Source: Malassezia furfur (lineage: Eukaryota). Taken from it: 40,360 nt of DNA. The position numbers and the translations under genes are program-made. The number at the start of each line of letters is the position of its first letter. The stretch's first letter is position 1. The DNA is taken from assembly GCA_052055015.1 (NCBI GenBank), contig JBQJIT010000053.1. One strand, written 5' to 3'. Positions 1-40,360 of the stretch are shown piece after piece. A model generated the notes under the pieces. That model saw only the letters and a program-made list of their open reading frames with translations. It did no database searches and had not been told where the DNA came from.

Positions 1-1570
1 TGGGCAGCTTCGACTGCCGCGGCTCCGCCGCCGCGCCGTCCGCAAGGCGCGTGCCGAGCCACGTCGTCCGGTCCTCGTCGCGCTTCCGCCGCTTCGCGTC
101 GCGCTCGGCACGCGCGGCGTCGTCCATGTGCTCGCGGCGGTACTTGGCGTCGCGCTGCTGCTTGTACGCCTCGAACGGGTCCTCCACGACGTTGGTCTCG
201 AGCACACGGATCTCACGCAGCGGGCGGTCCGTGTCGTCGCTCGGCACGTTCTCGAGTGCATCAAGCGTGCGGAACGACGCACTCTTCCCGGGCTCGCCGA
301 CCAGCCGGCCAAACACGGTGTGCTTCGTGTCGAGGTGCGGCGTCGCGCGGTACGTCACGAAAAATTGCGAGCCGTTCGTGTTCGGGCCGCGGTTCGCCAT
401 CGACAGCACACCGCGCGCCGTGTGCCGAAACGCGCCGGGGCGCACCAGCTCGTCCTCAAACGGCTTGCCCCAGATCGACTGCCCGCCACGGCCCGTGCCG
501 GTCGGGTCGCCACCTTGCAGCATAAAGCCGGGGATGTTGCGGTGGAACAGGGTATCCTTGTACGTCCCGCGGCGGCACAGCTCCAGGAAGTTGTAACACT
601 GCGTCAGCTTCGCGCGCACACGTACCGTACGCGGCGCCTTGTCGACGTGCAGCTCGAGGTCCAGCGCACCAAAGTTGGTCACGAGCCGCACGAGCGCCTT
701 GGGGTGCTTGCTCGCACTCGCGACATGGTCAAACATCTCCGCCTCTTCGTCCACCTCGATCCGCTCCGTCTTGGTGCGCGGCGTGAGCGACGACGAGGTG
801 AACGACGCGGCCGTGCGCCCGGTCGACAGGTTGCTGAGCCGCGGCGCACGCGTGGCGCCCGCGCCCGACGCCGCCTCCTTCGGCGCCTCCTTCGGCGCAT
901 CGTCCGCCGCCGAGTGCTGCCGCACCTGCGACAGGAGCGCGCGCGTGCTCCCGGTCGACATGTGTACCTCGTCGGCCTGCTCGGTGGTCGCGAGCGTCAG
1001 CTTGTTTTGCACGTCTAAGGTCAGCCCACACGTAGCATACGTACGGTACAGCTTTTGCATCGTCCGCCGCTCCGGGTCATGCGGGTCCTGGAGCGTCAGA
1101 AGGTCCGCCTTGGTGAACGGCGTGTCGTCCACGAGGTCGCGCAGCATCTTGGGCTTGAGGTTGAGCTGCTGCACCGTGTCGTACAGAAACACGTTGCCCG
1201 TCGGCTTGACCGCGACGAGATGGCTGTGGTCGGTGAGCTCCTTGCACGACACGGGGTCGTACAGCCGCCCACGCTCGTTGCGCGCCATGTGCAGCGCAAG
1301 GATCTCGTCGCGCGATGCGGGGCGCCCACTCGCGGGGCTCACATGGTACTTGTCCAGGAACCGCTCGAGGTTTGTGCGCTCGTACACCAGCCCCTCGTCG
1401 GGCAGACACGCAGGGGTACGCCACGCTTCGTGCGTCAGCGCACACATGTCGAACGGCACGACGACCGACGCCTCGGCCTTGCGTGCGCCGGTGCTTGCGC
1501 CATGCCGGCCATACACGCCGCTGTGCTCCGACGGCGTGACAAACAGCTTGTCGTTCGTCCCATGTCCCAT
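1..1570 (-). CDS. PPIL2: Peptidyl-prolyl isomerase-like 2 (U-box + cyclophilin, Cyp8/PPIL2); 3' end runs off the window
   Basis: Manual translation from ATG 1570: [16 protein letters not shown]...FDMCALT...[17 protein letters not shown]...LQDP (U-box region). Cyclophilin motifs follow: [59 protein letters not shown]. Introns 1015-1044 (30 nt) and 599-625 (27 nt). It is absent from the ORF track because there is no stop in the window. Confidence 0.93.
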
Positions 1571-1597
1571 CGCGCCGACTCGATGTGGAGGTTCGTG

Positions 1598-2421
1598 ATG
1601 CACCTCCGCGGCGCAGCGCTTTTGCTGTGCCTGGCTGCGGCAGGCGCCCAGGCCAACACGGAGATCCGCACGGTCGGGCCGCTGCTCTGCGACCTGCGCA
1701 ACAATGCGCCAGGCGTCGACTCCAAGTTCCTGTCCAAGAGCTGGTACGTATACACGCTGACGCAGGCCGACCATGTCGCCGTCGCCGTCGCCCCGGCGCT
1801 TCCACCTGCCGCGCACCTCGCAGGGCGCATGGGTCGCGCTGTACCCCGACTACGACGACCTCGAGATGGGCGTACACGTGTACCAGCGGAAAACGGGGTG
1901 GTGGGACGCCGCGCTCCTGCGCCTGCCGGCGTCCGTGCGCTGGTTCCTCACCCAGCGCTACCAGCTGCGCGTCTCGTGGCCCGCCAACGTACGTCCAACC
2001 CTACTCATACATGCAGGTGCCGGCCACGTTCACGATCGACGTGCACACGTCCGACATGCTCGGCGGCGAGCCAGCGCCGGCGCCGCGGCCGTGCGAGCTG
2101 CTCCTCGCGCGAATCACCGCACATGCCACGGGCGTGCCGCTCCATACCGCGCCGGCCCGCGCCACACACGGCCTGCTGCGCCTTGCCGAGCGCGCGTTCG
2201 GCTGGGCGGCGCCGCACGAGGCGCACGACGCAGAGCCCCTCGTGTTCGACCTGACGTTCGAGCACGTGTACCTCGGCGCCGTCCCGTCGTCCACGCTATG
2301 GATGGTCGCCTATGCCGCACTGGCCCTCGCCGCCGCACACCTCGTGTTCCGTGTGTTTGCGCGGCGACTCGGGCTCGCTCGCGCCTCCCCTGTCCATAGG
2401 CCGGCGCCCAAGCGCCTGTAG
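1598..2421 (+). CDS. Signal-peptide, single C-terminal TM protein, Pga1-like (GPI-mannosyltransferase II cofactor-like)
   Basis: [22 protein letters not shown] signal peptide, [12 protein letters not shown] motif, and a C-terminal hydrophobic helix after [12 protein letters not shown]. Introns 1744-1765 (22 nt) and 1989-2016 (28 nt) join three ORF-track frames. The family call is from motif recall. Confidence 0.6.
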
Positions 2422-2454
2422 GTCGCCTAGGTGGAGGTCCCACCCCGCTCCACG

Positions 2455-38677: not shown

Positions 38678-39068
38678 GATTCCTCTAGTTTGGTGAAAGC
38701 GGAGAGAGGAAGCGGTGAAGAAGTGTCGAACGTGCACTGTCAGGCCGGCTCCAAACGAGTTAAGCTCGTAGGAGATTCCGGGCTGCGCTGCGGCTCGGCC
38801 GGCTTACTTGCCGGAGTCGGAAGAAATAATGAATTCGAGCGGCGAGATTGGTCAGCAGCTCTGCAAGAATAAACCGGGACGTGTCGGACCAATTAGCGAT
38901 GGAGGGTGGCTTATGCAAACTACAACACGAGGCAGAGAAGGGCGTGCAAGACGTAAACCGCATGCGCCCACAACCTGGGCAATTAAAGAACCAGATGCAT
39001 GTACCGGGGCTCTGCAGCGTGCCTCGCCGATGCGCCACACCGATTTTCAGCACGGGCCAATGACTGCT

Positions 39069-39814
39069 TCACGGCGGCATCTGCCGCAGACGACTCACGA
39101 GGCGTTGCTGTTCCTCTGCAGTGTGCTGGCGCTCAGGCAACGACTAGATCAGTAGAAGGCACTTACCGAACGTAGCTGGTGGAGCTGGGTATACACGGTG
39201 CGAAGCACCTCTTCAGTCCGGGCCTTTGCCTCAACGTCGACTGCGTGTGAGTGCGTAAGCGTACCACAGAGAGGCTCGCCCTTTATCAGCGCGGGGAAAC
39301 GAGCGCGAGGCTTGGATTTTCGTAGCTTGCGCTGTCGCCGCTCTTCTCGCGCATTGATGAGCGCGCTTAGCGCTTCAGAGCGCTGCTGAACTGCCTGTGC
39401 ATAGGCGGATGGGATGCGCTTGCGGCATGCCACCACACGCTCCGTCATCTCATCCACGTCGTCGGAGAGCGCACTGACACGGCTCGCGAGCTGCTCATCG
39501 AACGGCTCCATTGCTTTGTGAAAATGGCAACCCACCTGCTTCCTGCTTGCTGTACTCGCCAAAGGTCAGGCCGTTGATCAGGACATTGTGCATGAGGCGT
39601 GTCCGCGCTGCATAGACCCACTGCGTGAGTACCCCAGACGTACGCGATCCAGCGCTTGTTCCATGGTCTCCTCGAGCGCTGAGGCGCCGCCGCGCTGGCT
39701 GCGCGCACGCAGCCGCTCCTTGCCTACGTCGAGCGCGTACCTCCGTACCGTATCGGCAATGTAGTCGAGATCGCTCGGATCCTCGAGGTCCACCTTGGGC
39801 AGCTCCTTCGGCAT
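39069..39814 (-). CDS. NSL1: Kinetochore MIND/Mis12 complex subunit Nsl1/Mis14-like
   Basis: PKVDLEDPSDLDYI, NVLING, MEPFDEQLASRV..L...V...T..V...RKRIP. Introns 39621-39643 (23), 39514-39535 (22), 39241-39264 (24, less certain) and 39144-39166 (23). Confidence 0.75.
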
Positions 39815-39919
39815 CGTCCGCGTCGCGTGGAGGCAACCAAACAACACTTGATTAGTCAGCGCGTGGAGTCGCATCGTTTTCGCCGTAACGGGCGCAGCTC
39901 GGTTTGACGTGCAGGGGCC

Positions 39920-40360
39920 ATGAAGCGGCACGACCGCGCATTTCTGCAATCGGTCGACCTGAACACGGATGCGAACCTTGGATCGCAGCTTGACGAAGAC
40001 TATGATGCAGGGTGGCCATCGTCATCCACTGGCCTATGGAGCGCCAAGGGCCCGACAGTGTATGCGCCCCGCATGAGCCTTGCACGTAGCGCCAAGCTGC
40101 ACGCCCAGTGGGCACTCGGTGGATGGAGCGACGCAAACCAGTGGAAGCGTGCGATGAAACTGGTGCGGATGTACGTGCCTTGCCACTCACCCAGGTCCTC
40201 CGAGCTTCGGCTGGGCCTCGTCAAGGGGCTCTTGCTGAGCGGTGTCGTGTGTGCCCTAGTGTACTTTTTCAGTCTGACCCTGCTCCCCGAGTTCCGCAGC
40301 GCAGAAGAGGAAGAGGAGCAAGCCGTATGGATTGGATCGGTGTCGAGTGCCTTTTGGCTA
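39920..40360 (+). CDS. Membrane protein, EI24-like; 3' end runs off the window
   Basis: Open frame from ATG 39920 (MKRHDRAF...HAQWALGGWSDANQW...SELRLGLVKGLLLSGVVCALVYFF...WIGSVSSAFWL) with TM segments. Intron 40171-40194 (24). Confidence 0.6.
   Translation, partial: MKRHDRAFLQSVDLNTDANLGSQLDEDYDAGWPSSSTGLWSAKGPTVYAPRMSLARSAKLHAQWALGGWSDANQWKRAMKLVRMYVPCHSPRSSELRLGLVKGLLLSGVVCALVYFFSLTLLPEFRSAEEEEEQAVWIGSVSSAFWL

Follow-up and report, generated by a model that had tools for sequence, protein, structure and literature searches.

We analysed a 40,360-base stretch of Malassezia DNA (the window, by which we mean this whole stretch) and followed up a set of very short introns in its genes. Comparison with related loci and proteins confirms that the window holds real introns of the spliceosomal type of about 20–25 nucleotides (nt), which places them among the shortest known from any fungus. 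We read them as genuine GT-AG introns of the major spliceosome (U2-type) that have shrunk to little more than their signals, and we put the probability of this reading at about 0.86. What speaks for it is the combination of GT-AG ends, an extended donor and a branch motif with a reading frame and protein that are restored once the segments are taken out, and with the presence, absence or changed length of the same introns at orthologous sites. That the segments are excised from the RNA is something we infer from these DNA and protein comparisons. Any statement about the genome as a whole has as its basis the 40-kb window and about 45 kb of related loci.

The window has 59–71% G+C and its genes are densely packed on both strands. 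It comes from a Malassezia of the M. furfur group, as judged from two sets of protein matches: a HUT1 exon is 95% identical to an M. furfur CBS9595 protein and 94% identical to one of M. brasiliensis, and for the longest exon of DLD2 the best named relatives are Malassezia species, with 69–74% identity.

The catalogue holds 57 GT-AG introns between positions 599 and 40194, spread over about 33 genes, which comes to 1.41 introns per kb and about 1.7 per gene. Lengths run from 20 to 49 nt with a mode of 22 (n = 12) followed by 23 (n = 10), a median of 24 and a mean of 26.2; 36 of the 57 introns are 20–25 nt long and 49 are no longer than 30 nt. Within the window, then, the median lies below the 30-nt mark of ultra-short-intron genomes. 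An earlier note on this DNA had called about 62 introns by hand, about 39 of them 20–25 nt long and with a mode of 22–23 nt, and these estimates were essentially right; the first and last elements that it listed (599..40194) are also the two ends of our catalogue.

The short size class stands out from chance. We scanned both strands for the pattern GT[AGT]NGT, then YTNAY, then the next YAG, with a total length of 19–26 nt, and found 40 matches; in 100 dinucleotide-preserving shuffles there were 3.3±1.8 (at most 8). The catalogue takes in 35 of the 40. In the raw list of matches the branch A almost always lies 5 nt ahead of the last G. The gene models that we used came from a fixed position-weight matrix (PWM), which gave 31 genes with 41 introns, and further introns were added by homology and synteny. 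Two early kinds of gene finder, one based on codon usage with lax intron penalties and one self-training, chained neighbouring genes together through spurious “introns” of 50–150 nt and were discarded. Independent support is available for 38 of the 57 introns, from orthologous loci for 25 and from alignment to profiles, PDB chains or homologues for 13. Among these 38 there are 24 introns of 20–25 nt, and the shortest has 20 nt.

The orthologous loci are Malassezia-like metagenome loci that were fetched with the DLD2 alignment. L002 (21 kb), L011 (17.6 kb), L001 and L003 are syntenic with the window over about 11–36 kb. The exon peptides on either side of every modelled intron were used as separate queries, and 28 junction-by-locus rows could be scored. 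For L002 there are 17 rows, of which 13 have 0 extra bases between the exons, 2 have an intron at the same site and 2 have small indels. A count of 0 means that the L002 orthologue has no intron there, and its unbroken frame is the exon-exon join that we predict for the window. For L011, ten of the 11 rows have an intron of another length at the same site, and in one the intron is absent. The paired lengths (window/L011) are 26/24, 23/25, 30/24, 25/31, 22/27, 24/25, 27/25, 22/23, 23/28 and 25/27 nt; the differences are mostly not divisible by three, and the flanking frames are preserved. For sixteen spliced junction peptides of 71 residues the L002 alignment crosses the junction without a gap. 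Orthologous introns for 15122–15141, 15202–15224, 25489–25537 and 31014–31044 came from a reciprocal search, and both relatives lack the PIS1 intron 20456–20479. In all, the introns that have comparative support from orthologous loci, by absence or by changed length, total 25.

Four junctions that the earlier note had regarded as fixed by protein motifs, and two segments that it had regarded as fixed by in-frame stops, all held up. (Here and below, strand is given as + or - after the coordinates.) The FGPAYK-GIPL junction of URA5 (orotate phosphoribosyltransferase) lies at a 22-nt intron, 32004–32025 (-), that is absent in L002, with 0 extra bases and an ungapped 71-residue span of 96% identity. 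The AMN-(L)FDFF junction of MOB2 lies at a 21-nt intron, 12064–12084 (+), a stop-free multiple of three; it too is absent in L002 (ungapped 71-residue span), and the Mob1 profile is continuous there, passing from position 28 to 30. At 10059–10080 (-; 22 nt, donor GTGCGC) in HUT1, a UAA transporter, the proteins of M. brasiliensis, M. pachydermatis and M. caprae have LLQEK-ITST without a break, and at 35122–35143 (-; 22 nt) in TLS1, of the Hep_59/C9orf78 family, the M. japonica protein runs straight through the DKH-MMDY join (VDVDKH-MMDYIESEMRKR), with the Hep_59 match beginning at residue 1 of the next exon. In-frame stops are present within 32563–32583 (+; 21 nt) in a WD40 gene, whose exons abut in L002, and within 35357–35377 (-; 21 nt, donor GTACGC) in TLS1, where the M. 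japonica alignment has a 5-residue gap at the junction.

The other introns with orthologous counterparts follow the same two patterns. At the site of the 25-nt DAP3 intron (mitochondrial ribosome), 11492–11516 (-), L002 has 0 extra bases, and L002 also lacks the MOB2 intron 12179–12202 (+; 24 nt, with an in-frame stop), over which the Mob1 profile passes from 58 to 62. The shortest intron of the catalogue, 15122–15141 (+; 20 nt) in a PPIL4-like RRM gene, has same-site introns of 28 nt in L002 and 24 nt in L011, and the RRM_1 profile goes from 33 to 35 across it; the second intron of this gene, 15202–15224 (+; 23 nt), has an orthologous 22-nt intron in L011. In PIS1 (CDP-alcohol phosphatidyltransferase) the intron 20456–20479 (-; 24 nt) has an AAG acceptor and two in-frame stops, and its junction ELDSLADS-ISFGVAP aligns ungapped to L002 and L011, both intronless there, while 20706–20731 (-; 26 nt) is absent in L002 and has 24 nt at the same site in L011. 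The VHS/GAT gene has 21943–21965 (-; 23 nt), absent in L002 and 25 nt long in L011, and 22127–22152 (-; 26 nt), whose junction is crossed by an ungapped L002 alignment. Of the two introns in the PP2A-family phosphatase gene, 22559–22583 (-; 25 nt) has same-site introns in L002 and L011 and gives a spliced C-terminus that ends in PDYFL, and 22855–22884 (-; 30 nt, a stop-free multiple of three) is absent in L002 and has 24 nt in L011.

Further along the window, the HIG1-domain gene has a 49-nt intron at 25489–25537 (+), for which L002 has an orthologous intron of 29 nt and whose removal leaves the open reading frame (ORF) open, and a 27-nt intron with an in-frame stop at 25737–25763 (+), spanned without gaps in L002, L001 and L003 and 25 nt long in L011. 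The 22-nt intron 26840–26861 (-) of USB1 (HVSL) has a 23-nt counterpart at the same site in L011, and the HVSL profile continues over it from 120 to 123. NOP53 shows 0 extra bases in both L002 and L011 at 27846–27868 (+; 23 nt), and at 28681–28705 (-; 25 nt) in OST3/OST6 the span is ungapped in L002, L001 and L003. The gene of an L16-type ribosomal protein has two introns that are absent in L002: 30277–30301 (-; 25 nt), with 27 nt in L011, and 30373–30395 (-; 23 nt), with 28 nt in L011 and an ungapped L002 span that is 92% identical. In the gene of a small tail-anchored protein, 31014–31044 (+; 31 nt, AAG acceptor) corresponds to an intron of 27 nt in L002 and one of 29 nt in L011, and the ORF is open once it is removed. 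Finally, the HIT-family gene has 36084–36110 (-; 27 nt, a stop-free multiple of three), whose counterpart at this site in L002 has 26 nt and whose removal is needed for the HVH-x-HVIP motif to form, and 36309–36331 (-; 23 nt), with 0 extra bases and an ungapped span in L002.

DLD2 (D-2-hydroxyglutarate/D-lactate dehydrogenase) joins the evidence from loci to that from proteins. Its first intron, 24973–24994 (+; 22 nt), is absent in L002, L001 and L003 and has 27 nt in L011, and HIGDGNLH forms across the junction. The second, 25089–25112 (+; 24 nt, with an in-frame stop), is absent in L002 and has 25 nt in L011, and VASVRGSISAEHGLG is continuous in homologues. Splicing of the third, 25252–25279 (+; 28 nt, donor GTACGC), gives NPYK-YLPNAH-stop, matching NPYKYLP in homologues, and the ORFs of relatives break after NPYK. 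The spliced model aligns without a break to Malassezia and Ustilaginales proteins at NCBI through all three junctions. In at least 13 relatives the DLD2 proteins that were called as ORFs break off, with the breaks forming a mosaic over exactly these three sites; calls of this style read on into an intron and continue beyond it in a shifted frame.

Uninterrupted matches to Pfam profiles, PDB chains or homologous proteins account for the 13 further supported introns. In the PPIL2-like U-box/cyclophilin gene the intron 599–625 (-; 27 nt) is a stop-free multiple of three, and the alignment to human PPIL2 (chain 7abi_t) has a 9-residue gap exactly over its 9 codons; the Pro_isomerase profile picks up again, at its position 25, with the first residue of the next exon. 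At 9041–9063 (-; 23 nt) in HUT1 the UAA profile passes from 270 to 272, and LVSIT-VTRKLFT is continuous in M. brasiliensis, other Malassezia and Ustilaginales. The 21-nt USB1 intron 27043–27063 (-), another stop-free multiple of three, has a PWM score of 8.2, and L002, L001 and L003 span its junction with 4 gaps nearby. Across 29296–29317 (-; 22 nt) in OST3/OST6 the OST3_OST6 profile goes from 89 to 94, and L002 spans the junction with 4 gaps. The TLS1 intron 34850–34872 (-; 23 nt) gives EVDLGV-NVRLQNIEATEK, which the proteins of M. japonica and M. yamatoensis have without a break. GPD1 (glycerol-3-phosphate dehydrogenase) has five introns in the catalogue, all on the minus strand. The NAD_Gly3P_dh_C profile crosses 37670–37700 (31 nt) from 69 to 75, the NAD_Gly3P_dh_N profile crosses 38212–38239 (28 nt) from 80 to 82, and the N-terminus becomes one ORF only after three longer introns are removed, 38396–38442 (47 nt), 38511–38555 (45 nt) and 38582–38630 (49 nt). 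The GPD1 N-terminus with GSGNWG forms only after splicing.

Public gene models of relatives were checked for two genes, HUT1 and TLS1. Both spliced HUT1 junctions match the M. brasiliensis protein at NCBI, and two of the four TLS1 junctions (DKH-MMDY and DLGV-NVRLQ) are clearly continuous in the M. japonica protein. The HUT1 model of M. furfur CBS9595 (P0122) reads LQEK-SAT in place of LQEKITST, and VSIT is missing from it. Since M. brasiliensis and other species agree with the sites that we use, the splice sites of the CBS9595 model are probably mis-annotated.

The remaining introns were placed by their motif together with the reading frame. In a gene of unknown family, 1744–1765 (+; 22 nt) has the motif and coding phase on both sides and 1989–2016 (+; 28 nt) has the motif and frame continuity. 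The CNH-domain gene has 2786–2806 (+; 21 nt, a stop-free multiple of three), with a PWM score of 6.6 and coding phase, the weakest kind of support, and 5331–5352 (+; 22 nt), with a PWM score of 9.1 and frame continuity. Introns after a first exon were placed at 8577–8605 (-; 29 nt; PWM 9.2 and a frame join) in a protein kinase gene, at 11815–11836 (+; 22 nt; motif and frame join) in MOB2, where the L002 alignment spans the junction with 1 gap, and at 23463–23484 (-; 22 nt; motif and frame join), where exon 1 has 6 codons. A 24-nt candidate, 40171–40194 (+), follows a first exon of 5 codons; it is a stop-free multiple of three with a motif that scores 6.7 on the PWM. Motif and frame continuity place 26110–26144 (+; 35 nt) in the HIG1-domain gene, where read-through meets a stop, and the motif together with an ORF open to its stop places 31108–31142 (+; 35 nt) in the gene of the tail-anchored protein. 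For TLS1 34721–34742 (-; 22 nt) there are the motif, a frame join and a loose alignment to M. yamatoensis and M. japonica, and for 35972–35997 (-; 26 nt) in the HIT-family gene the motif and a frame join. The MIX23 gene has a profile match to MIX23 and an ORF that is uninterrupted over the three introns proposed for it, 36754–36776 (+; 23 nt), 37169–37196 (+; 28 nt) and 37258–37285 (+; 28 nt); for the latter two the evidence is this ORF continuity. In the Mis14-like gene the candidate 39514–39535 (-; 22 nt, AAG acceptor) joins two frames into one ORF, with a Mis14 profile match downstream, and 39621–39643 (-; 23 nt) has a PWM score of 8.8 and a frame join. In the VHS/GAT gene, 22176–22198 (-; 23 nt) is a candidate by its motif (PWM 5.2) and lies outside the gene model. 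If it and 22127–22152 are both introns, the 23 nt between them, 22153–22175 (-), would be a micro-exon.

The anatomy of these introns is uniform. The layout is GTACGT, a linker of 4–7 nt, CTNAC, 1–2 nt and YAG, which bears out the architecture of GTACGT, short linker, branch motif and YAG that had been proposed from the letters. All 57 introns start with GT and end with AG, and all 57 have a YTNAY branch motif, which for most of them was part of the scan. The donor is GTACGT in 37 introns, GTGCGT in 5, GTATGT in 4 and GTAGGT in 3, with the remaining forms seen once or twice each; 54 have the form GTNNGT, and the other three are GTNCGC, with GC at positions 5–6. The acceptor is CAG in 51 introns, TAG in 3 and AAG in 3; the AAG acceptors are at 20456–20479 (-), 31014–31044 (+) and 39514–39535 (-), the first two of them backed by orthologous loci. 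The commonest branch motifs are CTGAC, CTAAC and CTCAC (counted in the first 53 catalogued introns), and the exon base at position -1 is G in 34 of 53. From the branch A to the last G there are 5 nt in 38 introns and 4–7 nt in 52. The branch A stands at intron position 16–19 in 37 introns and never below 16; a distance from 5' splice site to branch A of about 15–17 nt had been claimed, and the catalogue is in line with it. In the twelve 22-nt introns, 14 of the 22 positions are fixed or nearly so, and positions 7–13 form the variable linker. The introns have 57% G+C, and their lengths leave a remainder of 0, 1 or 2 on division by three in 14, 25 and 18 cases, with no bias to multiples of three. 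The 45–49 nt introns of GPD1 carry the same signals as the tiny ones.

For U2-type introns of this size we propose an essentially ordinary route. The donor hexamer would pair with U1 and later with U6, and the CTNAC or CTNAT branch element with U2, as in the textbook pairings, and the first AG past the branch would be used as the 3' splice site. A polypyrimidine tract would not fit into the 5 nt from branch to 3' end, and the two sites are thus probably read as one composite signal. The floor of 16 nt may be the shortest loop that lets the helix of 5' splice site and U6 and the helix of branch and U2 dock in the catalytic centre. The machine itself would be much like that of S. pombe or human, with U1 and U2 acting in quick succession or in a compact arrangement, and with modest tuning in this lineage at most.

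Some points weigh against this reading. For 19 of the 57 introns the evidence consists of the motif and the continuity of the reading frame. Two of these, 2786–2806 and 40171–40194, are stop-free multiples of three that have motif and frame support, and could be coding. The scan required GT, AG and the branch motif, and their frequency of 57/57 is thus partly circular. The origin that we give for the 16-nt floor is an extrapolation from 57 cases in one window. In addition, canonical U1 and U6 would be mismatched to a donor with C at +4, and this mismatch leaves room for small nuclear RNAs (snRNAs) that have co-evolved with the donor.

The last point leads to the alternative that survives best, which is that early recognition is detectably adapted: U1, SF1/U2AF and U2/SF3b would be unable to sit together as in standard E and A complexes, and one would expect, for example, U1/U6 pairing fitted to GUACGU, a U2AF large subunit that is lost or altered, or SF3b and U1 proteins that are trimmed. 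We think this possible but doubtful. The geometry speaks for it, with the branch A so close to the donor (intron position 16–19 in 37/57, a distance of 15–18 nt) and so close to the 3' end (5 nt in 38/57), with no space for a pyrimidine tract, and with C at donor +4 in most introns. The A complex is said to occupy 79–125 nt of RNA in the relevant passage of PMC4463651, and for Stentor the corresponding passage of PMC9505925 offers a steric-clash conjecture together with non-conserved regions in a branching factor. However, the same passage has Stentor, with even shorter introns, keeping all snRNAs and most core proteins, and tiny introns alone therefore do not imply a rebuilt machine. The window also encodes PPIL2-like, PPIL4-like, TLS1/C9orf78 and USB1 proteins; a spliceosome with such human-type accessory factors is not grossly reduced, and their presence argues against a stripped-down one. 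The shared signals of the 45–49 nt GPD1 introns likewise suggest one machine that handles both sizes. The step from spacing to an adapted spliceosome, which the earlier note had drawn, is plausible and restates a known open problem.

A stronger form of this idea is that the M. furfur group has the shortest intron set in a culturable, tractable fungus (mode 22 nt, a 16-nt floor and 5 nt from branch to end), and that the set needs co-evolved early recognition, with U1 and U6 tuned to GUACGU and a reader of a composite branch and 3' splice site that works without a pyrimidine tract, across thousands of introns. We offer this tentatively, at well under even odds. If it is true, Malassezia would be a bench model for a full-size spliceosome that assembles on an intron below its own footprint.

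It is also conceivable, though unlikely, that the introns are real and are spliced poorly or conditionally, as in microsporidia, with retention common and perhaps regulatory. For the ultra-short introns of microsporidia the median efficiency of splicing is reported as about 25% (cited in PMC13644364), and in the window 7 introns would give stop-free in-frame insertions if retained. Against this, the genes are mostly housekeeping genes, and of the 53 introns tested 46 would be disruptive if retained, 33 through a frameshift and 13 through a stop within the intron; the genes hit include URA5, GPD1 and the PP2A-type phosphatase. The introns of M. sympodialis have near-complete RNA-seq support in the annotation table of PMC5389616. 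Under strong surveillance multiples of three would be expected to be scarce; at 14 of 57 they show no deficit, in a sample too small to weigh. For the same reason of sample size, we draw no signal of selection against retention from these 14 of 57 multiples of three or from the 7 of 53 stop-free in-frame cases.

Somewhat less probable again is that more than a fifth of the catalogue is false, that is, motif look-alikes in coding sequence or untranslated regions (UTRs), especially stop-free multiples of three or segments beside tiny first exons. Five of the 40 motif matches fit no gene model, 19 introns are without independent support, and three candidates proved to be coding: 1015–1044 (30 nt), where the alignment to human PPIL2 is ungapped; 20085–20117, where the PIS1 exon aligns straight through in L002; and 17109–17130, which lies within one ORF. 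On the other side stand the 38 introns with independent comparative or homology support, the shuffles with about 3 matches as compared with 40, and the fact that 5 of the 7 stop-free multiples of three, the class most open to this suspicion, are confirmed (those starting at 599, 12064, 22855, 27043 and 36084). Removal by some other means, such as a HAC1-type or tRNA-type endonuclease and ligase or translational bypass, is very improbable, for although 20–26 nt resembles the size of HAC1/XBP1-type unconventional introns, these segments are spread over about 27 unrelated genes, have donor, branch and acceptor signals of spliceosomal type, and are gained, lost and resized in relatives like ordinary introns.

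Two further candidates were set aside. At 13379–13396 (18 nt, PWM 0.8) the spans in relatives are all gapped, and at 39241–39264 (-) the ORF does not need the removal. The motif matches outside the gene models are at 10973–10998, 16274–16296 (-), 22373–22394 (-), 38396–38416 and 39144–39166 (-). Those at 16274–16296, 22373–22394 and 39144–39166, and also 39241–39264, all on the minus strand, may be UTR introns or chance matches.

Intron content and size were also compared among related lineages. Between 11400 and 36400, L002 lacks 18 of the window's introns and has 5 in common with it. L011 has 13 introns in common with the window and lacks 2 window introns, and it has three of its own without a counterpart here (10736–10760, 12161–12189 and 9429–9454). 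This sharp difference at the same loci may be due to loss or to gain, between which we are undecided, and it is material for studying both. We had considered that the introns here might be much shorter than those of relatives and dropped the idea: at 13 orthologous sites the means are 24.7 nt in the window and 25.7 nt in L011. With means so nearly equal, the size class is shared across the genus and is not peculiar to this species. The distance from branch to 3' end is 5 nt here vs mostly 6–8 nt in relatives and looks tighter in the window.

Four genes for splicing or snRNA processing lie in this one window, probably by coincidence. Identified by homology, they are the PPIL2-like U-box cyclophilin gene at 2–1570 (-), the PPIL4-like RRM protein gene at 14759–15926 (+), the USB1/HVSL-family gene at 26476–27202 (-) and the TLS1/C9orf78 (Hep_59) gene at 34518–35511 (-). 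The PPIL4-like protein, beginning with 14759–15121 (+), aligns to human PPIL4 from residue 202 on and has 46 residues before that point, and it seems to be without the N-terminal cyclophilin domain, unless upstream exons were missed. An Rfam scan of the window found a transfer RNA (tRNA) gene only and no snRNA genes. The tRNA gene, 31425–31505 (-; 81 nt), scores 61 bits with Rfam, and ARAGORN calls it tRNA-Leu with anticodon tag; a length of 81 nt suggests a short tRNA intron, in which case the anticodon call may be off. G+C declines along the window, being about 70% over the first 15 kb and about 60% over the last 10 kb, and a codon model trained on the GC-rich genes gave poor scores for the last genes.

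Short introns in Malassezia have been reported before. In the curated annotation of M. sympodialis the 5350 introns average 30 bp, and RNA-seq supports 99% of them (PMC5389616, Table 2). Figure S8 of the same paper (Zhu et al. 2017) plots intron lengths; its legend and axis text are the legible part, and the plot may already show the same mode. For M. restricta an average/median of 37.2/30 is given (PMC9241646, Table 1), and its annotation used minimum intron lengths of 20 and 15 (PMC6473144). A review speaks of “very short introns” in Malassezia genes (PMC7426719). Other papers give M. globosa an average intron of 76–79 nt (Wu et al. 2015, PMC4634964) or treat M. sympodialis as intron-poor (Lim et al. 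2021, PMC8476143). Our full-text search, with subscription-only papers outside its reach, found no description in Malassezia of a 22–23 nt mode, of the branch spacing, of the 16-nt floor or of any connection with the splicing machinery.

A 2026 list of lineages with introns below 30 bp names ciliates, microsporidia, dicyemids and myxozoans, and Malassezia is not named in that list (PMC13644364); the list agrees with the claim that this size class is otherwise known from ciliates and microsporidia, and adds the two animal groups. The case is less novel than had been claimed: no text that we searched gives a 22–23 nt mode, but introns of this kind are already in NCBI gene models (M. brasiliensis HUT1 and M. 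japonica TLS1) and very short introns are in print. The window is an under-noticed case of the known ultra-short-intron genomes, and the earlier note overstated how new it was.

How an intron below the footprint of the early complexes is recognized is an open question that is usually studied in ciliates, microsporidia and parasites, which are hard to manipulate. Malassezia is a tractable yeast, both culturable and transformable according to the review's account of the genus (PMC7426719). Introns of 20–23 nt also defeat the default settings of aligners and gene finders, and the proteomes of these skin and bloodstream yeasts are thus easily mis-annotated. Among aligners, STAR in its default setting counts a gap of less than 21 nt as a deletion. 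The value of the case is therefore twofold, as a tractable yeast for the tiny-intron problem and as a flag for annotation errors.

The nearest comparison is with the other annotated Malassezia, which belong to the same genus and have introns of the same kind. As compared with the published figures for them (a mean or median of 30), the window has a mode of 22 and a median of 24, with about 1.7 introns per gene. Ciliates offer a second comparison: Paramecium (about 25 nt) and Stentor (15–16 nt), in the accounts that we drew on, have genome-wide GT-AG introns of about 25 nt or less that are almost only signals, and they raise the same steric question. Ciliate introns are AT-rich, and in Paramecium stop-free introns that are multiples of three are depleted. 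Unlike them, the introns here have 57% GC and a strong CTNAC branch motif, with no clear deficit of multiples of three. 

Microsporidia likewise have introns below 30 nt in the fungal lineage; in the passage of PMC13644364 on them their introns number only a few dozen, their spliceosome is reduced and their splicing is reportedly inefficient. The yeast here differs in being culturable, in its density of about 1.4 introns per kb and in its accessory splicing factors of human type. Very similar lengths are found in myxozoans (Thelohanellus and Myxobolus, with a median of 22 bp) and in dicyemids, which the same source presents as rare exceptions among eukaryotes (PMC13644364). These differ in being animals and obligate parasites. 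In the introns of Giardia and Trichomonas the branch A lies a few bases from the AG and branch and acceptor form one element, as we suppose for the window, but those introns are few and have a longer conserved 3' motif, whereas here the introns are numerous and only CTNAC-N-CAG is conserved.

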